The notes: generated by a model not told the origin, from the sequence alone. A stretch of 24,000 nt of DNA from Prochlorococcus sp. AG-402-I21 (GCA_003216955.1 QCHZ01000006.1:26707-50706), one strand, 5' to 3'. Counted from the first letter of the stretch, positions 1,509 through 24,000 are shown. Numbers and translations: made by a program.

Positions 1509-2987
1509 CTAAAAAAGTTTTGGAGATGAAGCTCTTGCTCTGCCGCTAGAAGCCCAATCTTTTAGAGATTCAAGTTGTTCTCTTGCCGTTCTAGAAAGAG
1601 GAACTAGTTGACTTGTGGCGAGTATTAAATCACCTTCAACAAGCTCTCTTTTTTCTGCGAATGCAAGGTACATTGCCTCTATGACTGCTTGTTCTAATTC
1701 TGCACCTGAGAAACCTTCTGTTCTATCGACAGCAACATTTAAATTAATATCTAAATTAGGTCTTCGTTTTTGAAGATGAAGTTCAAGAATGCTATGTCTT
1801 TCGCTTCTGGAGGGCAATTCCAGCATGAAAATTTCATCAAATCTTCCTTTCCTCAATAGTTCAGCAGGAAGCTTATCTATTCCATTTGCAGTAGCTACAA
1901 GAAAAACAGATGAAGTTTTCTCTGACATCCACGTGAGAATATTTGCAAGAACTCTTTGACTAGTTCCTCCATCACTCCTACCATCCCCACCAAAAGCTTT
2001 GTCAATTTCGTCAATCCATAGAATGCAAGGTGCCATTGCTTCGGCGCGCTGAATGGTCTCTCTGGTTCTTGCTTCACTTGCTCCAACTAAGCCAGCAAAT
2101 AATCTTCCTACATCAAGTCTTAATAAGGGCATAGACCAGCTGTTTGCTATCACTTTCGCTACAAGCGTTTTGCCTGTCCCTTGAGGGCCAACTAGTAAAA
2201 CCCCTTTAGGCAATGGCAATCCAAAATTTTTTGCTTCTTCTGAGAAGGCTTGTTTCCTTTGCTTCAGCCAATCTTTCAATATTTGTAAACCACCAACATC
2301 ATTTGGCGACTTATTTGTTTCGCAATATTCCAGTACCTCGCTGCGAGCAATAGATTGGCGTTTCTCTTCCAGTACTTCTATTAAATCTTCTTTACCAATT
2401 TGACCTCTTTGAGCAAGAGCTCTAGCTGCTACTTTACGGATTCTTGATTCACTAAGGCCCCCACATGCATTTGTAAGTTCTTTTAGAACATGATCATCTA
2501 ATTGCGAATTACTTGCTTCAGCAATGTTTGATAAAAGTGTCTTAATTTCTTTTTCTTTAGGTAGGGGAAGATCCAGAATCGTTAGGTCTTCTTCTAAATC
2601 ATTTGAAGGGCTCCATAACCCAGAACTTATAATTATTGTATGTGGCTTTGAGCGCAAGTTAATAGTTAAATTTTTTAGCATTCTTAGAATGCCTGGATCT
2701 TCACAGAAATGGTGAAAATCTTTTAAAAGAAGAATGGTTGGAGAACTTTCATCCAGCTTTTTAAGCCACTCAAGGACGACCATTGGCTGTCTAGAACCTA
2801 GATTATTAGAATTAAGAACATTATTAATTCCATCTATGTAATCCCAAGTTGCAAGTCTTCTGGGGGTAAGCCTTTTAGTAGAATTTTTTAAAAGTGTTTC
2901 AATTCTTTCCTCTTCATTACTTCTTATCCAAATAATAGGAGTTCTTGCTCGAATTAGTAGATCAAGTTGTTCTTCCCAATTAGACAT
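1509..2987 (-). CDS. AAA+ ATPase, Ycf46-like
   Basis: 492-aa ORF. The C-terminal AAA module has Walker A GPQGTGKT, Walker B ILWIDEID and the second region of homology (ATANGIDKLPAELLRKGRFD). The ~230-aa non-ATPase N-terminal domain matches the architecture of cyanobacterial/plastid Ycf46. Confidence 0.85.
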   Translation of the reverse strand: MSNWEEQLDLLIRARTPIIWIRSNEEERIETLLKNSTKRLTPRRLATWDYIDGINNVLNSNNLGSRQPMVVLEWLKKLDESSPTILLLKDFHHFCEDPGILRMLKNLTINLRSKPHTIIISSGLWSPSNDLEEDLTILDLPLPKEKEIKTLLSNIAEASNSQLDDHVLKELTNACGGLSESRIRKVAARALAQRGQIGKEDLIEVLEEKRQSIARSEVLEYCETNKSPNDVGGLQILKDWLKQRKQAFSEEAKNFGLPLPKGVLLVGPQGTGKTLVAKVIANSWSMPLLRLDVGRLFAGLVGASEARTRETIQRAEAMAPCILWIDEIDKAFGGDGRSDGGTSQRVLANILTWMSEKTSSVFLVATANGIDKLPAELLRKGRFDEIFMLELPSRSERHSILELHLQKRRPNLDINLNVAVDRTEGFSGAELEQAVIEAMYLAFAEKRELVEGDLILATSQLVPLSRTAREQLESLKDWASSGRARASSPKLF

Positions 2988-14327: not shown

Positions 14328-14406
14328 TTGATAAATTAATTCTCCTTCAACTATAGCTTCTAAAGGAGCTGAAGAAAAATAATTTAATATATATAAAAGA
14401 ATTTTT

Positions 14407-14682
14407 CTATTGATTATTATTTCTATAAGTAAGCTTTAAAATTAAAATTGAAAAATTAAAAATAAAGGTAATTATATTTGCAACTAAAATCGGAATTGAA
14501 TGGATCTTTAAAGCGTAAATAATCCAACAAATTAGACCTGTTATAAATAGAATTAACATGATTAATGATACATCCTCTGCTGATTTCGTTTGCCACGTTT
14601 TATATAATTGAGGTATAAAAGCAATTGTGGTGAGCAATGCTGCTGAAAAACCAAATAAATCTATATAGTTAAAATGATTCAT
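14407..14682 (-). CDS. SemiSWEET / PQ-loop (MtN3-like) transporter
   Basis: 91 aa with three TM helices and the PQ motif in TM1 (TTIAFIPQLYKTWQTKSAEDVS). It also has the conserved IPILVANIITF helix, and its length is typical of bacterial SemiSWEET half-transporters. Confidence 0.75.
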   Translation of the reverse strand: MNHFNYIDLFGFSAALLTTIAFIPQLYKTWQTKSAEDVSLIMLILFITGLICWIIYALKIHSIPILVANIITFIFNFSILILKLTYRNNNQ

Positions 14683-14776
14683 CTTTGTTTAATTGGAATG
14701 ATATAGATCAAAACTATATAGTAATAAAAAATTATTATATTATAGTTTTACCCTGTATTAGGAGTATCAAAATCTT

Positions 14777-15043
14777 ATGAGTGATCAGTCTGATTTTAAT
14801 GATGAAGTTTTAAAGGATAAATTGGAAACTTTGTTAGATGAAGATAATGTGATTAAAAAATGGAATGAAGGCCCATTAATAAAATCACTTATCCTTTTGC
14901 CAATAATAATTTTTGTAGTAGGTTTATTTATTGTGAATAAACCAGAAAAACTAATAGATATATTATTTGTATTTCTTTATCCTGCAGCCCTAATATTGAT
15001 AGGGTTAATACTTCTATTCTTTATGCGAAGTAAATTAAAGTAG
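14777..15043 (+). CDS. Small two-TM hypothetical protein
   Basis: 88-aa ORF with an acidic N-terminus and then two hydrophobic helices. Confidence 0.45.
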   Translation: MSDQSDFNDEVLKDKLETLLDEDNVIKKWNEGPLIKSLILLPIIIFVVGLFIVNKPEKLIDILFVFLYPAALILIGLILLFFMRSKLK

Positions 15044-15140
15044 AAGATATTAATAGAATCTTTTACTTTAAATCTTGGATTTTATGTAGCCAATAAGGTA
15101 GTCCCAATGTAAGCTATTAGTAATTAAGCATTAATATCCA

Positions 15141-15308
15141 ATGGCAGGCGGACCATTATTACAACTTTGGGAAAACCTATTACCATTTGCTAAGGATCTG
15201 AGAATTCGCTTTGCAATAGCAATGTTAGGTAATGTTTTAGCAATATTATTTATTTTCACCCTATGTAAAATGTTTATTCCAGGATTGGAAGAACAACTAT
15301 TTAATTGA
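15141..15308 (+). CDS. Unannotated 55-aa single-TM ORF
   Basis: Hand translation gives MAGGPLLQLWENLLPFAKDLRIRFAIAMLGNVLAILFIFTLCKMFIPGLEEQLFN*. Its 3' end overlaps the stop region of the convergent TPR-methyltransferase gene by 12 nt. Confidence 0.35.
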   Translation: MAGGPLLQLWENLLPFAKDLRIRFAIAMLGNVLAILFIFTLCKMFIPGLEEQLFN

Positions 15309-17636
15309 TTTTTTAGCCCAGAATTGATACATTTCTCTAAAAGAATTAGGATTTAATTTTTCAAATTTATCCCATAATTCTAAATCTTTTAAAGAGTCTA
15401 TATCTTTATTATCTATCTGATATTTATCTTTTATATCTTTTGAAAGAGTAAAACCTAGGAATTCCAGATTAGATACTTTTAACATATCTTTAATTTCAAT
15501 TAATGAGTAACAGTTTTCGTGACTATGAAAGCAGAGATCTCTACACATTGATGTTGAGTAGAAATCTGACCAATTAGTTATTTCATTTAACTGTTTTATT
15601 TCTCCATTAAGAACGTCATTTCTGAAGTTCCTTATGCCGTCTATATCTGGTTTTATATCTTTTTCTTTGATTAGATCTCTCGCTTTTAGTATTTTTTCTC
15701 GTGCATACTTGCTGTATAAACCTAACTTTAAAAAACCATTTGGTTCTAGTACATCTAATAGATTTGATAATCCTTTAGTTGGATCACTCATATGGTGGAG
15801 AACGCCTGAACATTCTATTAAATCAAATCTTTTATTAAGTGAGTTTAATTCAAGTAAATCCATTTCTATAAAATTGATATTTTTTAATCCATATTCATCA
15901 ACCTTTCTCTTTGCATATGAGATACTTGAATTGCTTAAATCAATTGCTGTTACTTCGCAATTACTATATCGAGATGCTTCAACTATTTGAATCCCAGTTC
16001 CACAACCAGCTATAAGTATATTTATTTTCTTATTCACTAATTGAACTGAATTAGATTTAATTGTATTTGGAGAAATTTCAGAATTAATAACTGACAGAAA
16101 GTTTAATTTATTTTCTCTAGCATATGAATTATATCTCCATCTAGGATATGGATTTAATTCATACTGATTTTTAACTTTCTTAGATATAGAATCTTTTATA
16201 CTTCCTATTCTTTTAATTCCTTTTAAAATCTTTTTTTCATCATTTAACTCTTTTAATTGTAAATTAAGTAAATTATTAAATTCTTTATTATTTGAGATAT
16301 AATTATTTAAATTAATTATGTCTTCATTTATTGAAGATAGAGATTGGTAACATGAGATTATTGCTAATTTATAGTCTTTGTTTTTCTTGTTATCGATCTT
16401 TTTCTTAAGTTCTTTTAGTTTATCCTTCTCTTCTATGGATATGTAATAGACATACTCATTTAAGAAACATTGTGATCCAAGACCTATAGTAAAGTCAAGC
16501 ATAGCATTACTTATTTTATCTTTATCGGAATAGCTCATAAGAATGTTCTTGCGTATATTTCCTAATACTTTTTCCCATAACGGAGAGCAAAATATTAGTA
16601 GTGAAAGTGCTTTTACTAGTTCCTTATTCTTAATAAGAATGTTAAATTCATTACTCTCATACAAGTCTGATTTTAAAATAGATAATTTTACCAATATTTC
16701 TTTGTAGATCAGGCTTTTTATATTGCCAAATAGTTCTCTATGAGAAATATCTTTTCTATTTAATATATTGGAAAGTAATTTTCTATTTTCTTTTTCTGAT
16801 GTATTTAATAATTCTCCTTTTTTAATTAAATCACATATAAGCTGATAACTTAACTCACTATCTTTATTCAATAAAAGTTCTTTTTTTGCAAGGGAGAGTG
16901 ATCTTTTGTAATCACCGATCTGATTGTATATTGTGGCTAAATTTAAATAACAATTTTCTAATTTATTATTTAGCTCTATAGCTTTCTCTGTATGTAATAT
17001 TGCCTTTTCTATTTCTTGTTTATCTTTATAGCATGCACCTAGATTCAAATGTGCGATAGCAGATTTATTATTTATCTCCAAAGCTTTTAAATAATATTCT
17101 TCTGCTTCATCGTATTTGTTAGAATCTTTATTTAATAAACCTAGATTTATATATGCATCAAAGTAATTTACATCTAGTTCAATTGCTTTTTCAAATGATA
17201 ACTTTGCCTCATCATACTTATTTAAACTTTTTAAAACTAATCCTCTAATACAGTACCCATTAGGTAGACTTGGTTTTAATTTAATTGCTTCTTCAATTAT
17301 TCTTTCTGCTTTTTCTAGATTATGTAATTTATAATATAAAAAAGATAAATTTAATTTCGTGAAAATATGATTTGGAAAATTTTTAGAACATTTTTCATAT
17401 AGTTTAATAGCTTTGTCATTCTCTTCTTTTTCTTCACATATCAGTGCATAATTTGAAATTATGTCTGGATCAGAATACCCATTTTTTAAAAAAGCTATGT
17501 AACCTTTTTCTGCTTCATCTAAATTACCTTTAATATGATTACTTATTGATTTTGCTTTCAGATCCTTTTCTGAAAGCTTTTTAAGTTTTTTAGAAGAACC
17601 AATATTCTCTTGTTTCTTTTTACCGAAACCACTCAA
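15297..17636 (-). CDS. TPR-repeat protein fused to a class I SAM-dependent methyltransferase
   Basis: 779-aa ORF. Residues ~40-260 hold about 7 TPR-like 34-aa repeats (e.g. AERIIEEAIKLKPSLPNGY, AKLSFEKAIELDVNYFDAY, AEEYYLKALEINNKSAIAH). Residues ~530-660 hold methyltransferase motif I ILIAGCGTGIQ, post-I AIDLS, and FDLIECSGVLHHM. The ~270-aa middle region is unassigned. Confidence 0.8.
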   Translation of the reverse strand: MSGFGKKKQENIGSSKKLKKLSEKDLKAKSISNHIKGNLDEAEKGYIAFLKNGYSDPDIISNYALICEEKEENDKAIKLYEKCSKNFPNHIFTKLNLSFLYYKLHNLEKAERIIEEAIKLKPSLPNGYCIRGLVLKSLNKYDEAKLSFEKAIELDVNYFDAYINLGLLNKDSNKYDEAEEYYLKALEINNKSAIAHLNLGACYKDKQEIEKAILHTEKAIELNNKLENCYLNLATIYNQIGDYKRSLSLAKKELLLNKDSELSYQLICDLIKKGELLNTSEKENRKLLSNILNRKDISHRELFGNIKSLIYKEILVKLSILKSDLYESNEFNILIKNKELVKALSLLIFCSPLWEKVLGNIRKNILMSYSDKDKISNAMLDFTIGLGSQCFLNEYVYYISIEEKDKLKELKKKIDNKKNKDYKLAIISCYQSLSSINEDIINLNNYISNNKEFNNLLNLQLKELNDEKKILKGIKRIGSIKDSISKKVKNQYELNPYPRWRYNSYARENKLNFLSVINSEISPNTIKSNSVQLVNKKINILIAGCGTGIQIVEASRYSNCEVTAIDLSNSSISYAKRKVDEYGLKNINFIEMDLLELNSLNKRFDLIECSGVLHHMSDPTKGLSNLLDVLEPNGFLKLGLYSKYAREKILKARDLIKEKDIKPDIDGIRNFRNDVLNGEIKQLNEITNWSDFYSTSMCRDLCFHSHENCYSLIEIKDMLKVSNLEFLGFTLSKDIKDKYQIDNKDIDSLKDLELWDKFEKLNPNSFREMYQFWAKKSIK

Positions 17637-17833
17637 TGTTTTTTATTTAATTAATAGCATTATACTAAAACTTGAAAATCTTATTATTTTAGCTTAATAA
17701 ATCTATTGTTTCCAAACTATAGTTACTGGTTTCTAATTTATATATTATATAGATAATACTATATTTTTAACTCTTTTCACCTCCAGCAAGCCCTAATTTT
17801 TCATATAATAATTAATGTAATCATAGGATAAAA

Positions 17834-19964: not shown

Positions 19965-20390
19965 TTAGTCAACAAATCTTGAGTATAACCATCTAACAAA
20001 CACTCCTATTATTGGAATATTACCAAATGTTCCTGAACAAAAATCAAAATAATCTCTATGTTCTTTAACCTTTCCTTCTTCATCAAATATTAAGCGTGTT
20101 GCTCCATCGTATATAAATTCGATACCTTTTATTTTTAAACCCATTGTCCATTCAATAAAAGCAATATTCTTATTGATGGCAATTGAATGTGATTCTAAAT
20201 AAATATCATCACATCTTTTGATTAATCCATCTTGAGCTTTGATATAGGCATCAATTCCATTTTTTTCCTGAGTAGGATCGATGAATTTAACTTGTTGATT
20301 GTACAAAGATTCCCATTCTTTCCTTGATGGAGCTTTCTCTCCATAGGACAAATTAAAGAATTTTTTTAATTCTTTCTCTGTGATGAGCAT
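19965..20390 (-). CDS. NTF2/SnoaL-like fold protein
   Basis: 141-aa ORF. Size and pattern (YNQQVKFIDP...AFIEWTMGLKIKG...IYDGATRLIFDEEGKVKEHRDYFD) resemble SnoaL-like polyketide-cyclase/NTF2 family proteins. The call is from memory, not aligned. Confidence 0.5.
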   Translation of the reverse strand: MLITEKELKKFFNLSYGEKAPSRKEWESLYNQQVKFIDPTQEKNGIDAYIKAQDGLIKRCDDIYLESHSIAINKNIAFIEWTMGLKIKGIEFIYDGATRLIFDEEGKVKEHRDYFDFCSGTFGNIPIIGVFVRWLYSRFVD

Positions 20391-20505
20391 TTAACTTAAC
20401 GTTAATAAATACAATTTAGATTATTTAAATAGACATCGTGTTGAAGCTATGTCATCAAGATAACTCAGAAATAGCTTAGATTTGGTATCTATTCATTTAA
20501 CTCAT

Positions 20506-20919
20506 ATGAACAGGAAGAACATACTTATTTCTATTGCTGTCCTTGGAATAGGAATAATTCTCTATAAATTGCTTTTAGGACTTGTCCTCCCAATAGCTTT
20601 GTTTGTCTCTCTTGGATATGTTTTGAAGTTTTTACTTAAGAATTCTGAGTCTGATTCAGTTGATGAAGTTTCTCAGATTTTTACTAATAATGAGACCTCT
20701 GAGTCAAGTGACAACATAGTTGAAATCAAAGCCATTGAAGAGGATCAGCCTGTTGAAAAGGATCAGCCTGTTGAAGAGGATCAGCCTGTTGAAGAGGATC
20801 AGCCTGTTGAAGAAGAAAAGCCTGTTGAAGAAGAAAAGCCTGTTGAAGAGGATCAGCCTGTTGAAGAAGAAAAGCCTGTTGAAGAAGAAAGGCCTGTTAA
20901 AGAGGATCAGCCTTGGTAA
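20506..20919 (+). CDS. Membrane-anchored protein with acidic P-V hexapeptide repeat tail
   Basis: Start moved to the ATG at 20506 (MNRKNILISIAVLGIGIILYKLLLGLVLPIALFVSLGYVL), giving two TM helices. The C-terminal 60 aa are ten (E/K)E(D/E)(Q/K/R)P(V/W) units that run directly into the stop codon. Confidence 0.6.
   Translation: MNRKNILISIAVLGIGIILYKLLLGLVLPIALFVSLGYVLKFLLKNSESDSVDEVSQIFTNNETSESSDNIVEIKAIEEDQPVEKDQPVEEDQPVEEDQPVEEEKPVEEEKPVEEDQPVEEEKPVEEERPVKEDQPW
20737..20916 (+). repeat. 10 x 18-bp in-frame tandem repeat
   Basis: Units are phased exactly every 18 bp. There are two main variants, gaagaggatcagcctgtt (EEDQPV) and gaagaagaaaagcctgtt (EEEKPV), in the order D,D*,D,D,K,K,D,K,K*,D* (* = point variants). 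Confidence 0.95.
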
Positions 20920-20963
20920 GCCTCTAGTATTGTATTGCTTTAATTATTTCTCAAGTTTCTTTA

Positions 20964-21191
20964 ATGGATACAAAAATGGATACAAATGTAAAAAAAAGTT
21001 TTTGGGATTCAAAGCCTTATTGGTGTCAACCTTGGTCAATTCTTAGCTTTGGAGTTTTAGTTATAATTTTCAGTTTTACACTTTTAAATAACATTATAAT
21101 AACCTCTATTGTAGGTTTTTTTATTCTTGTTTGGTGGATAATATTTTTAATACTTGCTCCGAATTCGTATCAAGTAAATAATGATAAATGA
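20964..21191 (+). CDS. Small two-TM protein (KPYWCQPWS motif)
   Basis: 75-aa ORF. Its 5' end contains a 12-bp tandem duplication (atggatacaaaa/atggatacaaat) that provides two in-frame ATGs, at 20964 and 20976. Confidence 0.55.
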   Translation: MDTKMDTNVKKSFWDSKPYWCQPWSILSFGVLVIIFSFTLLNNIIITSIVGFFILVWWIIFLILAPNSYQVNNDK

Positions 21192-21287
21192 TAACCATTA
21201 TTTATTAATTTGTTTTTTGAAAGAGCCTTAACAATAAATTATCTAGTAAGATCAAAAAACAAAAAAAGGAAATTTTAAGTTCAGTCT

Positions 21288-21555
21288 TTATTTTTCCTGA
21301 TCACTATTTATTTTTGAAGGAAAGCCTAAGTAAGCACCTGAAAATCGCTTCCGATTGGTCCAGTAAAATTCAACTAACTCTCTTGTGGAAATTGTTATGA
21401 GTGCTTCTCTTCCAATTTCTAGTCCGCCTGAAAGCTTTAGGCTCTTTGTCGATTCCCAGCTTGAAGTGCTTGAAGATTCCATTAGTTACTCCAGTTGATT
21501 GGTTGATTAAATACGAGAAGATCCCCCTACCTCTGTTGAATGCTTCATTAATCAT
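21288..21555 (-). pseudogene. Possible frameshifted gene remnant
   Basis: Two overlapping minus-strand ORFs in adjacent frames (21370-21555 and 21288-21482) could be joined by a single frameshift near 21480. A plus-strand pair shows the same kind of break. The local composition is less AT-rich than the flanks. Confidence 0.25.
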
Positions 21556-21908
21556 GCTCAGTAAATTAAATGATTTTGTAAGAGTGGGTGAAAGAAAATC
21601 GAGATTCTTCGATACGATCGAAACGCATATTCATAGTACATTAGTACTAAATAATGTCAATTTTCTATTCTTGATTGCTTAAAGTGAACTTGCTTATTTG
21701 ATTCGATTATAATTATTATTTTATTGCAACTTACTGAAAATAATATGTGAGAATAAATAAAATTTAGAGTATTTTTGATTATTATTACATATATAGACTA
21801 TATAATAATAATATTTTTTAAATTAATTATGATATGAATTATATTTTATAAATTTTTAATTAAGAGATATATTTTTTTCCAATTTTTAATTGGAATGAAA
21901 TATAAATT

Positions 21909-22103
21909 CTAGATAAATGTAAACTTATCTATTACTAGAATCTCTTGCTCTGAGAAATCACTAGCAGATATGCAATTTATCCATTCTTTATACTCTTGAG
22001 CAATTGCTAATTGATCCCTTGGACTGACCTCTACTGTTCTTTTTAGAATATGAGATAAACCTTTGACTAATAAATCTTCTATACTTTTCGGATTTTCTTG
22101 CAT
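21909..22103 (-). CDS. Cassette gene F: 64-aa acidic hypothetical protein
   Basis: This is the last ORF of the minus-strand cassette, 105 nt downstream of gene E. No motif recognised. Confidence 0.45.
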   Translation of the reverse strand: MQENPKSIEDLLVKGLSHILKRTVEVSPRDQLAIAQEYKEWINCISASDFSEQEILVIDKFTFI

Positions 22104-22208
22104 TTACTTGTGGCATGTATACTATAATAGCTTTTATTAATTGGTTTGTAAAGAGATAAAAGGCTTTGCAAGAACTATTTAGGTGCGATATTTTTATATT
22201 AAAATATA

Positions 22209-22550
22209 CTATGCTGCATTAGTATTTTTTTTCTTATCTATTGATGGTATAAATCCAAATTCTTCTATTTCTTCAACTAATGTAAGCTTGATATCTTCTT
22301 TAGTAGATTTTATATTAATAGTATTGGAATTTATTTTTTTATCATTTTTATTTGAATCTTTGGATTCATTTTTTATAACTATATTTCTATTTATAGATTT
22401 TTTGAGATTATTAATCATATTAATATTTATCAAATACAATGAAAATGCAATCCCAATCAGAACTAGAAAAATATTATGAACAAAAAAATATGAGAAAATG
22501 AATGTCGGAGATAAATACTCTATCACCTGATTTATTTTAATTTCTTTCAT
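22209..22550 (-). CDS. Cassette gene E: single-TM protein with K/N-rich tail
   Basis: 113-aa ORF with a hydrophobic helix (FIFSYFFVHNIFLVLIGIAFSLYLI). It starts 2 nt after the stop of gene D. The antisense ORF 22183-22479 is rejected in its favour. Confidence 0.55.
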   Translation of the reverse strand: MKEIKINQVIEYLSPTFIFSYFFVHNIFLVLIGIAFSLYLININMINNLKKSINRNIVIKNESKDSNKNDKKINSNTINIKSTKEDIKLTLVEEIEEFGFIPSIDKKKNTNAA

Positions 22551-22552
22551 AA

Positions 22553-22873
22553 TTAGGCGACATCCTGTTGAGTACTCTTATTTTGCCTTTCTATTAAGGT
22601 CAGATCATAGGAAGATTGTATTTGATTATTATAATCTAAATCATCAATGAATCTTGATATAGATGTTTTATTTTGAATCCATTTACGTCGTATAATTTTA
22701 GGTAAATGAGGTAGTTCGGCTTCTTTCTTATTAATAGACTTCATGTATCGTTTCCTTTGTCCACTATCTATTGTTGATACATCTCTCTCATTGGATTGAT
22801 AGAGATGTTTTTGGCTGTCTCTTGACGCTGTAATCGCCATTAGCTCTGAAAGACTTCTGATAAATGGAATCAT
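22553..22873 (-). CDS. Cassette gene D: 106-aa basic hypothetical protein
   Basis: Its ATG overlaps the TGA of the upstream 53-aa ORF (ATGA at 22870-22873), which implies translational coupling. Confidence 0.55.
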   Translation of the reverse strand: MIPFIRSLSELMAITASRDSQKHLYQSNERDVSTIDSGQRKRYMKSINKKEAELPHLPKIIRRKWIQNKTSISRFIDDLDYNNQIQSSYDLTLIERQNKSTQQDVA

Positions 22874-23031
22874 GCTGCATACCTCTCTTTATCCCTTTTA
22901 TTTTTATTATTTTTTTGACTTTTATCTTTTCTGTAGGCATTTATATAGTGAACGTCATAAGAACCTAATCCCTCTTCCTTGGGATTGTATAAATGTATGA
23001 ATCCATTCCTAGAATTTGAATTCTTATTCAT
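22870..23031 (-). CDS. Cassette gene C: unannotated 53-aa highly basic ORF
   Basis: Codon-by-codon hand translation gives MNKNSNSRNGFIHLYNPKEEGLGSYDVHYINAYRKDKSQKNNKNKRDKERYAA*. It starts 4 nt after the stop of gene B and ends in an ATGA overlap with gene D. Confidence 0.5.
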   Translation of the reverse strand: MNKNSNSRNGFIHLYNPKEEGLGSYDVHYINAYRKDKSQKNNKNKRDKERYAA

Positions 23032-23035
23032 AATA

Positions 23036-23266
23036 TTAAGCTAATCTACTTTGAAATGTTTTTTCGTTCAAAGTCTCTATGTCGTAAAGAACTTTGGGCT
23101 TGTATTTATCTAGTAATGCCTTCGTGATTCCTTTCTCTAAGTTGTGGATCTCCTCATTTTTTGATCTAATTTGTTTAGAGATTCTAGAGCTGAATTTGAT
23201 GCTTTTCATTTTTAATAATAGTAGAAGGGAAATGCTTTTATGATAATTGTTAGACAAGTGACTCAA
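23036..23266 (-). CDS. Cassette gene B: small basic protein
   Basis: The track ORF starts at a TTG that overlaps gene A by 17 nt. A more likely start is the ATG at 23209 (MKSIKFSSRISKQIRSKNEEIHNLEKGITKALLDKY...), giving 57 aa. It may be a small DNA-binding protein, but this is not established. Confidence 0.5.
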   Translation of the reverse strand: MSHLSNNYHKSISLLLLLKMKSIKFSSRISKQIRSKNEEIHNLEKGITKALLDKYKPKVLYDIETLNEKTFQSRLA

Positions 23267-23921
23267 TTTTTTCTCTGTTTGACAGTAATTTACTTAGTTT
23301 TTTATTTTCATCTTGAAGATTATTGATGACTTTTTTGTAAGTCTCGATTTTTTCTTTGAGCAATTTTATCTTTTCGCTTTCATTCTTTTGAGAGGCTTTA
23401 TTAGCTTTTTTTCTGTTCCCTTTTACTAGGATTCTCACAGTCGCTTCTGTCACTCTTTCGCCGTTCCCAACGGCTTCGAATACCTTTTGCCGCTCCTTAT
23501 CAGTCACTCCTTTGCTTCCCATTAATGCTAACGATCTGGGTGTTAATGATGCAAGCAGGTTGTCGTCTATGTCAGAGCCACCTAGCCAGTTTGTGTATGC
23601 GCTTACAAGGTCAATAGCAAATCTTTCTGAGCAGTTAATCGCTCCAGACTTTAAGAAGGCTCTCCAGTTCCCTGGCTTGATGTTGCTTTTTATGTCTGAG
23701 AGGTTTGCTGCCACGGCCCTTAGCGATTGCCCAACACAGCTAAGCTCGTCGTTGATTTCAACGACAGATTCTTTTACATATTCCACCTGTGCGGGCACTA
23801 GACCCTTGGTGACTTCGCTATTGAGCGGGATATTAGCTAAGTCAACCACCTCTGTAGGCGATAATTCCATTGGTTTAGCTGAATACTTTTCTAATATACG
23901 TCTTGTGACGAATCGGAACAA
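23250..23921 (-). CDS. Cassette gene A: DUF3102-like protein with C-terminal coiled coil
   Basis: 223-aa ORF starting at TTG 23921, or 206 aa from the ATG at 23870. The central segment GNWRAFLKSGAINCSERFAIDLVSAYTNW resembles, from memory, the G-W..WL....S.RTA..YM core of the phage/plasmid DUF3102 family. The K/E-rich C-terminus has heptad character. The gene is distinctly less AT-rich than the downstream cassette genes. Confidence 0.6.
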   Translation of the reverse strand: MFRFVTRRILEKYSAKPMELSPTEVVDLANIPLNSEVTKGLVPAQVEYVKESVVEINDELSCVGQSLRAVAANLSDIKSNIKPGNWRAFLKSGAINCSERFAIDLVSAYTNWLGGSDIDDNLLASLTPRSLALMGSKGVTDKERQKVFEAVGNGERVTEATVRILVKGNRKKANKASQKNESEKIKLLKEKIETYKKVINNLQDENKKLSKLLSNREKIESLV

Positions 23922-24000
23922 TGGGTACTTATGTACTATCTTTTAGCTTTTTATTCTATAGCGTCAGAGTGCATTGTAATTTGTAGATTTAGTTTAATTT

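Follow-up and report, generated by a model that had tools for sequence, protein, structure and literature searches.

Does a compact run of small genes without a housekeeping assignment, at the edge of a stretch of Prochlorococcus DNA, belong to a mobile element or to the chromosome in which it lies? The run in question comprises six minus-strand genes, here called A to F, near the end of 24,000 nucleotides of Prochlorococcus sp. AG-402-I21 (GCA_003216955.1 QCHZ01000006.1:26707-50706; "the window" hereafter denotes this entire stretch). An earlier reading of the sequence alone, below called the original prediction, took the six genes for a mobile or accessory cassette headed by a DUF3102-like gene and cut by the window edge. 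Comparison of the locus across genomes and metagenomes shows instead that the block is an operon fixed in NATL-type (LLI) Prochlorococcus, passed on vertically and not mobile today. With moderate confidence, we interpret this chromosomal operon of the NATL2A-type (LLI) clade as a regulatory module domesticated from an old integrative element that no longer moves, its lead gene having relatives beside tyrosine recombinases.

A fixed operon in one chromosomal slot

Loci were retrieved via gene A. A scan of one genome per species recovered 22 of them, all in Prochlorococcus, and at 21 of the 22 the order of genes A to F and of the downstream flank matches that of the window. Metagenomes contributed 80 further loci, 76 of them of LLI type. 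Across the 21 species-level genomes and the 76 metagenomic contigs the block occupies the same slot, between glyQ and a DUF6737/AhpC flank; C-D-E-F follow A in every LLI-type metagenomic contig with enough flanking sequence, and 25 of these contigs also reach glyQ. Upstream of A, the 21 genomes share the divergent glyQ, an OprB-type porin, a small open reading frame (ORF), a 2OG-Fe(II) oxygenase and a solute-binding protein, all of them conserved. Such clade-wide synteny, which the original prediction had itself named as evidence against a mobile cassette, is what these loci display. Pairwise distances point the same way: relative to the flanking TPR-methyltransferase, they correlate with rho = 0.70 for A, 0.81 for D, 0.83 for E and 0.65 for F, values close to the 0.71 and 0.81 obtained for the conserved genes of the flanks. 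Since the cassette diverges in step with its flanks and shares a single slot, it is fixed and vertically inherited in the clade, and the proposal of a mobile or accessory unit is not upheld.

All six ORFs are genuine genes under purifying selection, with B the weakest case. Their lengths are kept across the 21 orthologous loci (D has exactly 106 aa in 21/21), and the median ratio of nonsynonymous to synonymous divergence (dN/dS) is low at a dS of about 1 (A 0.04, F 0.09, C 0.18, D 0.25, E 0.36 and B 0.45), so that the reading frames are conserved beyond chance. F is the second most conserved gene of the six, C is present in 21/21 genome loci, and B is present in 17/21. An independent NCBI record calls all six genes and gives B 58 aa.

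The integrase, replication module or adjoining tRNA attachment site anticipated just past position 24,000 did not materialize in related genomes, which show there a short variable spacer followed by glyQ, the porin, the oxygenase and the solute-binding protein. No recombinase, primase or helicase was found in the 10-kb flanks of the 21 related genomes, the window contains no tRNA, and the nearest tRNA gene in related genomes, tRNA-Ser(CGA), is 5-7 kb from gene A, beyond conserved genes. Two candidate traces of integration were rejected, namely an integrase pseudogene at window positions 21288-21682, for which tblastn with four integrases returned nothing, and att-like direct repeats around the cassette in three loci (L082, L004 and L006), which were only short, imperfect, chance-level AT-rich matches.

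Variable DNA does occur in the wider neighbourhood. The glyQ-A spacer (beyond 24000) is a variable islet of 0.4-5.2 kb in L002, L003, L007, L010, L013, L014, L018 and L020, and holds one or two copies of a 214-aa 2OG-Fe(II)_Oxy_5 gene, TPR proteins and other genes, with no integrase. On the far side of tRNA-Ser(CGA), gene content differs between genomes (L004 1-4800 compared with L006 and others), and an MBOAT gene, a formyltransferase gene and a 351-aa ORF beyond this tRNA occur in MIT 1012 only. This distribution suggests that a genuine genomic island at tRNA-Ser lies beyond that tRNA and not at the cassette. The expected island boundary is corrected accordingly: what varies is the short glyQ-A spacer and the region beyond tRNA-Ser.

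Gene A, its relatives and its leader

Outside the LLI clade, the nearest relatives of gene A lie on small elements of 6.4-8.3 kb, beside tyrosine recombinases. One relative, 57% identical (P0137), is carried by a 6.45-kb unit in which it is divergent from a 509-aa protein whose full-length homologs (48-55% identity) belong to PF00589 and are named integrase or tyrosine recombinase in Prochlorococcus genomes. This unit forms two 99.8%-identical tandem copies in contig L024 (1154-7454 and 7603-13902) and a single copy in several contigs of ~6.3 kb. The left flank of L024 also holds a 79%-identical remnant of the unit's right end, and a distant 243-aa paralog of gene A stands just outside the unit in L025 (1678-2409), so that arrays of related elements occur. 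A second element with the same arrangement of integrase and A was found in L028/L029. A third is represented by L123 (1-8386) and L124 (1-8382), two contigs from different Joint Genome Institute (JGI) samples that are 100% identical circular permutations with terminal repeats of 123-127 nt, that is, a circle or tandem array of ~8.26 kb. Its integrase passes the Pfam threshold (30.8 bits against a 27.1-bit cut-off), and its cargo consists of this tyrosine recombinase, a gene A relative, genes of 384, 122, 70 and 46 aa, and a TPR gene. In a different Prochlorococcus lineage (L022), a homolog 51% identical to A directly follows a 487-aa ORF homologous to the element integrases. Every family member on an element with a recognisable backbone (three distinct types) adjoins an integrase; the remaining members lie among small ORFs, in regions resembling islands, or on contigs too short for a decision. 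No tRNA genes were found on the contigs carrying these elements.

Integrase-related sequence also appears at two LLI-type loci. In one single-cell genome (L011, 202-2194), a second A-like cassette stands in tandem upstream of the resident gene A and encodes a 233-aa paralog, a 108-aa protein with two transmembrane (TM) segments ending in -KRAA, and a 113-aa Cys-rich protein, after which comes a C-terminal integrase fragment (1971-2194, minus strand); the same three-gene cassette is found on L030-L033. In a metagenomic contig (L082, 4272-5606), a 444-aa AT-rich integrase-like ORF (PF00589, 20.5 bits, below the cut-off) faces inward directly after F, before the DUF6737 gene, and replaces the conserved segment at 21288-21660. 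The mobile link of the original prediction is therefore retained for the gene A family, with its relatives beside tyrosine recombinases and one of their elements assembling as a circle, and dropped for the cassette itself.

The DUF3102 relationship was likewise found at a distance. The window's gene A protein has no significant match in Pfam, PHROGs, NCBIfam or PADLOC, and none to DUF3102 (PF11300) at E<=1 in Pfam. DUF3102 is the most recurrent weak match among its close relatives (10/22, best E 0.003), all of which stay below the Pfam gathering cut-off of 24.4 bits for the whole-protein score (best 15.8 bits or E 0.003). In the gene A family as a whole, defined by a profile search of 1.84 billion representatives as 136 clusters at 50% identity, 6/94 members match DUF3102, with a best E of 1.2e-11; the shared core, a G-N-W...S-x-R motif at about residues 53-98, aligns to profile positions 27-71. 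The AlphaFold model of A (pLDDT 85) is all-helical with a 40-residue C-terminal helix, and the Foldseek search of BFVD puts first a DUF3102 protein encoded by an uncultured marine virus (E 6.7e-6, prob 1.0, TM 0.47/0.40), with four further DUF3102 phage proteins at ranks 3, 8, 11 and 18. Foldseek against the PDB gave nothing significant (best E 1.6, QatB), and a PDB sequence profile search returned leucine-zipper and coiled-coil proteins only, over residues 150-200. As judged by remote homology and predicted fold, gene A is DUF3102-like; the original prediction was right on this point and on the coiled-coil tail, which both the model and the PDB profile support. Probably a DNA-binding regulator, A has short helices resembling a helix-turn-helix, a basic stretch and, at its C-terminus, a coiled coil of leucine-zipper type (residues 164-205). 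Sequence-level searches of 50,697 phage records, 72,556 plasmid records and IMG/VR contigs returned no relatives, and the wider family is small and known only from metagenomes.

Gene A had been given 223 aa; the ORF stands, and a later start is the likelier one. Between TTG 23921 and ATG 23870, conservation at codon positions 1/2/3 is 0.91/0.93/0.87, compared with 0.94/0.94/0.56 in the body of the coding sequence (83 unique sequences in each case). This uniform conservation of the 51-nt stretch indicates a non-coding leader, and A most likely starts at ATG 23870 and has 206 aa, which is also the choice of most gene callers. The leader is homologous to those of the element-borne copies, in which a -10-like box is followed by an inverted repeat; the box reads GATAGT in LLI genomes and is a perfect TATAAT in L024. 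A consensus-scan promoter with TAGAAT at 23958-23953 was rejected, that sequence being unconserved and the conserved box being GATAGT at 23940-23935.

Two symmetric motifs mark these promoters. In 756 kb of fetched DNA there are 20 copies of the sequence GACG-N1-6-CGTC; 17 of them precede the start codons of non-LLI homologs of A, at -47 to -50, each being the only copy in its locus. In L123 both arms differ (TTGGAC/GTCCAA), so that it is symmetry, not sequence, that has been kept. Across the family, an inverted repeat thus stands at a fixed position in the leader of the gene itself, as would suit a regulator of its own expression that is predicted to bind there. In LLI genomes the second motif, GTAC-N4-GTAC, is confined to the two promoters on either side of the cassette: all 20 exact copies in 372 kb, against 3.2 expected, fall there, with fixed half-sites and a free spacer. 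A leader hairpin in which CCAUUG would pair with the start-codon region was rejected, as the sequence around the start codon varies and the upstream arm does not.

Base composition sets gene A apart as well. Its G+C content at third codon positions (GC3) is 0.43 in the window, with a median of 0.49 in 21 orthologs (0.40-0.54), against 0.18-0.31 in flanking core genes; it is foreign to the host and resembles the GC3 of the element copies. The value falls along the operon, from 0.49 in A through 0.40 in B, 0.32 in C and 0.29 in D to 0.18 in E and 0.21 in F, and the mosaic composition noted at the outset was confirmed (41.7% G+C in gene A, 20.8% in gene E). Because synonymous sites are near saturation at a dS of about 1, this bias must have been maintained and is not a residue of recent transfer. 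Candidate explanations for it are codon selection, gene conversion from element copies and an overlapping feature. A 144-aa antisense ORF inside gene A (window 23512-23946, plus strand), with ORFs at the equivalent place in L004 (10192-10557) and L006 (10192-10509), is probably a by-product of the high G+C of A.

Small proteins and the region downstream of F

The arrangement of six closely packed ORFs was read correctly from the sequence (Table 1), B being separated from C by 4 nt, C overlapping D in an ATGA, and D-E and E-F having gaps of 2 nt and 105 nt. For B, given as 57-76 aa, both starts exist; 57 aa is the length in most orthologs and leaves a 40-nt gap after A. The predicted protein properties also held, namely small basic proteins (pI 9.3-9.9 for B-E, F being acidic) and a single hydrophobic segment in E. 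B, with a pI of 9.9, is the least conserved of the six; D has an invariant N-terminus, MIPFIRSL, and a motif DSGQRKRY; E combines its one long hydrophobic segment with a Lys/Asn-rich tail. None of B-F matches a Pfam, PHROG or NCBIfam family. The AlphaFold2 model of F shows three helices only (pLDDT 65) and is too poor for a fold search, and a PDB profile search with F was empty.

Table 1. Genes, promoters and sequence motifs of the cassette and its downstream side (positions count from the first nucleotide of the window)
Feature	Position	Strand	Description
Gene A	23250..23870	minus	206 aa from ATG; alternative TTG start at 23921 gives 223 aa
Gene B	23036..23209	minus	57 aa from ATG; alternative 23036-23266, 76 aa from TTG
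Gene C	22870..23031	minus	53 aa, basic, strongly hydrophilic; C-terminus -R-x-A-A
Gene D	22553..22873	minus	106 aa, basic; C-terminus -D-V-A
Gene E	22209..22550	minus	113 aa; hydrophobic (membrane) segment at ~residues 13-47
Gene F	21909..22103	minus	64 aa, acidic; C-terminus -FTF-x, not of the Ala type
Tentative seventh gene, "G"	21288..21482	minus, co-directional	64 aa; behind the promoter-like site at 21660-21633
AT-rich spacer	21683..21908	none	13.7% G+C, two short palindromes
Gene A promoter/leader	23893..23940	minus	near-invariant in 83 unique sequences, no 3-nt periodicity
Gene A -10-like box	23940-23935	minus	GATAGT
Gene A promoter motif	23936-23925	minus	GTAC-ATAA-GTAC; overlaps the -10 box
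TTCCGATTCGTCAC	23918-23905	minus	LLI version of the family's inverted repeat
F promoter-like site	22124..22152	minus	-35 TTTACA at 22152-22147, 17-nt spacer, -10 TATTAT at 22129-22124; consensus scan
Promoter-like site downstream of F	21633..21660	minus	TTGACA, 16 nt, TACTAT
GTAC-TAAT-GTAC	21647-21636	minus	inside the promoter-like site downstream of F

The proteins encoded by B-E share a type of C-terminus, a non-polar residue followed by Ala. Ends of the form [AVILM]A are found in 65% of 71 unique orthologs of B (usually -VA or -AA), in 95% of 85 unique orthologs of C and in 74% of orthologs of E (usually -AA), and D ends in [AVIL]A in 100% of 71 unique orthologs, against a background of 0.8% of 400 ORFs (P ~5e-8). 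The terminal Ala codons of the four genes differ (GCT, GCA, GCC and GCA), which argues for selection at the protein level. An -AA ending is also found on small ORFs that immediately follow the A relatives in L022, MIT 1307, L030, L032 and L011. In Synechocystis, ssrA-type tags with a final -LVA or -AAV reduce the level of a protein (PMC2860132); by analogy, the tails of B-E are probably Clp degrons.

Downstream of E, conservation is confined to short blocks. The -35 block of the F promoter, TCTCTTTACAAAC, is near-invariant in 46 unique sequences, and the remainder of the E-F spacer is not conserved. The 226-nt AT-rich stretch after F exists as first described, with both of its palindromes, and had been suggested as an end or origin region; it has no conserved column among 46 unique orthologous sequences, its length ranges from ~170 to 465 nt between genomes, and it is an unconserved spacer followed by another conserved co-directional promoter and a small ORF. 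The segment beyond it (21290-21660) is conserved at a median of 78% nucleotide identity in 37 unique sequences. There, the minus frame of "G" shows weak periodicity (0.87/0.86/0.77 at codon positions 1/2/3), ORFs are present on both strands, "G" is called as a gene on L034 and matches no Pfam family, and a search of 20000-24000 against Rfam gave no match at E<=1. Tentatively, the periodicity favours a minus-strand 64-aa ORF in 21288-21660, with a structured RNA as the alternative.

Elsewhere, the window encodes serS, an AAA ATPase, yidC, glycosyltransferases, a flavodoxin, the TPR-methyltransferase and AhpC. A long block of low G+C (0.23-0.26) at 14400-17700 covers the 779-aa TPR plus S-adenosylmethionine (SAM)-methyltransferase gene, which is only 70-85% identical between genomes, compared with 95-100% for the neighbouring AhpC. 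An ORF at 20482-20919 encodes an N-terminal hydrophobic segment followed by tandem acidic PVEE(D/E)Q-type repeats, and the opposite frame contains an ORF of LLK(R/K)IS repeats (20720-21046).

Interpretation, alternatives and known systems

If the operon is a domesticated regulatory module, A would act as a zipper-mediated dimer that binds inverted repeats, and would control its own operon (A-E) and the downstream small gene through the two GTAC-N4-GTAC promoters. The proteins B-E would be short-lived and turned over through their ssrA-like tails, with E as the membrane-acting member of the set, and F would be expressed from its own promoter. Our preferred guess for the cellular role is immunity or exclusion directed against related elements or phages. 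More broadly, we put forward as a tentative proposal, possible rather than probable, that marine picocyanobacteria harbour an undescribed family of circularising tyrosine-recombinase elements of ~6-8 kb, with a self-regulated DUF3102-like zipper protein and its fixed promoter-operator leader as their hallmark, and that the LLI-wide copy was domesticated and wired to two chromosomal promoters, driving proteolysis-tagged micro-proteins, possibly as immunity against elements or phages. If the domestication reading is right, a streamlined ocean cyanobacterium has made part of a mobile element into an operon that is permanent and defines a clade. The analysis also offers handles on genes so far listed as hypothetical, namely a candidate regulator for which two binding motifs are predicted, a putative proteolysis signature shared by four micro-proteins, and gene A as a hallmark by which the "cryptic" integrase elements of Prochlorococcus, still poorly understood, could be located in metagenomes.

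Several observations weigh against this interpretation. All compared loci were found via gene A, so that alleles without the block would not be visible, and a look-up anchored on AhpC, independent of gene A, yielded one long informative contig only. Neither the window nor the complete genomes show a detectable integrase remnant or att-like repeats around the cassette. Only gene A ties the cassette to mobile DNA, because B-F have no significant relatives on the elements: the best profile match among ~800 ORFs has an E of ~0.02, with D giving E 0.5 against a 59-aa ORF of L022 (alike by eye) and ~0.02 against TM proteins of L030 and L032 (QR[KR]RY motif in common), and C giving 0.15 against a 55-aa ORF of MIT 1307. 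Transfer could have run from element to host or from host to element. The TGACG/CGTCA repeat has a degenerate left half in the LLI genomes (TTCCGATTCGTCAC), the folding of the window's leader is only moderate (z = -2.4 against shuffles), and instead of serving as operators the inverted repeats could form hairpins in the RNA. The LLI label itself rests on the clustering of F, at 90% identity, with the NATL2A protein WP_011295054.1, NATL2A being the LLI type strain.

Two of the alternatives concern the origin of the block. A live integrative element, tycheposon or phage satellite, its integrase, replication module or tRNA site just past the window edge, would account for the relatives of A on integrase elements, the tRNA-Ser(CGA) 5-7 kb upstream in related genomes, the variable glyQ-A spacer and the integrase-like ORF after F in one contig (L082). 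It is nonetheless very improbable, given the invariant position and gene order in 21 species-level genomes and 76 metagenomic contigs, divergence that tracks the flanks at a dS of about 1, the four conserved genes between block and tRNA, the lack of a tRNA, att-like repeats or an integrase remnant in the window, and the lack of replication or defence families among the six proteins. Alternatively, the operon could be native to LLI without any mobile ancestry, the elements having taken up a host gene A with its promoter, or both deriving from a common ancient family. That only A, and not B-F, is common to the elements fits such a history, as do the very strong purifying selection on the LLI gene A (dN/dS 0.04) and the missing integrase remnant or att scar. 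We nevertheless consider it unlikely: the fold relatives of A in DUF3102 are phage proteins, the family is small (136 clusters) and its members on recognisable element backbones always adjoin an integrase, the layout of an A-like gene, small genes and an inward-facing integrase recurs at or beside the LLI locus (L011 and L082), and the GC3 of A is foreign to the host and near that of the element copies.

The other two concern function. A toxin-antitoxin, abortive-infection or exclusion module, with E or another small basic protein as effector, labile partners restraining it and A as regulator, would match the small and tightly coupled genes, the single membrane segment in E, the degron-like tails of B-E, a predicted regulator with operator-like repeats at the head of the operon, and a lead gene akin to mobile-element genes. 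Against it, PADLOC returned no defence match (noise only, E 0.015-0.039), no toxin or antitoxin was matched in Pfam or NCBIfam, and a synteny fixed across a clade is unusual for defence islands. We consider such a module quite unlikely; since it concerns the output of the operon, it would be compatible with domestication. The leader repeats might also be RNA structures for translational or stability control in place of DNA operators. They lie downstream of the -10-like box and so probably in the 5' untranslated region, both arms change together in L123, and the window's leader folds better than its shuffles (z = -2.4). However, GTAC-N4-GTAC overlaps the -10 boxes of two promoters and combines fixed half-sites with a free spacer, as is typical of a protein site, the TGACG arm is lost in LLI genomes while the sequence is invariant, so that a hairpin was not kept, and Rfam gave no match. 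Overall we regard an RNA function as doubtful, conceivable for the TGACG repeat and less so for GTAC-N4-GTAC.

Among known systems, DUF3102 (PF11300) shares with gene A the G-N-W...S-x-R core, the matches of family members and the fold matches; the window's protein itself is below threshold and adds a C-terminal basic stretch and a zipper, and, as DUF3102 is an uncharacterised family typical of phages and plasmids, membership would explain little. The tails of B-E resemble the ssrA tags read by ClpXP and ClpAP in ending with a non-polar residue and Ala (-AA, -VA, -IA or -LA), but the likeness is limited to the last two residues, and these tails are encoded in the genome, not added by transfer-messenger RNA (tmRNA). 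Among phage and phage-inducible island regulators, CI/Cro-type repressors and Stl of the Staphylococcus aureus pathogenicity islands (SaPIs) offer a comparison: the element-borne A gene is likewise divergent from or adjacent to an integrase, and A is a predicted dimer with a palindromic site in its promoter region. A differs from these regulators in having no sequence or fold relationship to them, and in LLI it stands at the head of a chromosomal operon that is fixed, where no element remains for it to control.

Closer to hand are the mobile elements of Prochlorococcus itself. Hackl et al. (bioRxiv 10.1101/2020.12.28.424599) quote 10-20 kb for tycheposons, mention "cryptic" integrase-only elements, and describe tandem copies and circular forms. 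The elements bearing A relatives are similar in that they carry a tyrosine recombinase whose family is represented in Prochlorococcus genomes, and in that they occur as tandem copies and a circular assembly; they differ from tycheposons in being smaller (6.4-8.3 kb) and in having no tRNA gene on their contigs. The window's block is further removed, with no integrase at either end (except for the integrase-like ORF in contig L082), no tRNA or partial-tRNA repeats, no primase, helicase or excisionase by Pfam, PHROG or NCBIfam, and no variable presence among the loci retrieved via gene A. On the domestication reading, the cassette is a variant of two kinds of system already known, DUF3102-type mobile-element proteins and decayed integrative elements.

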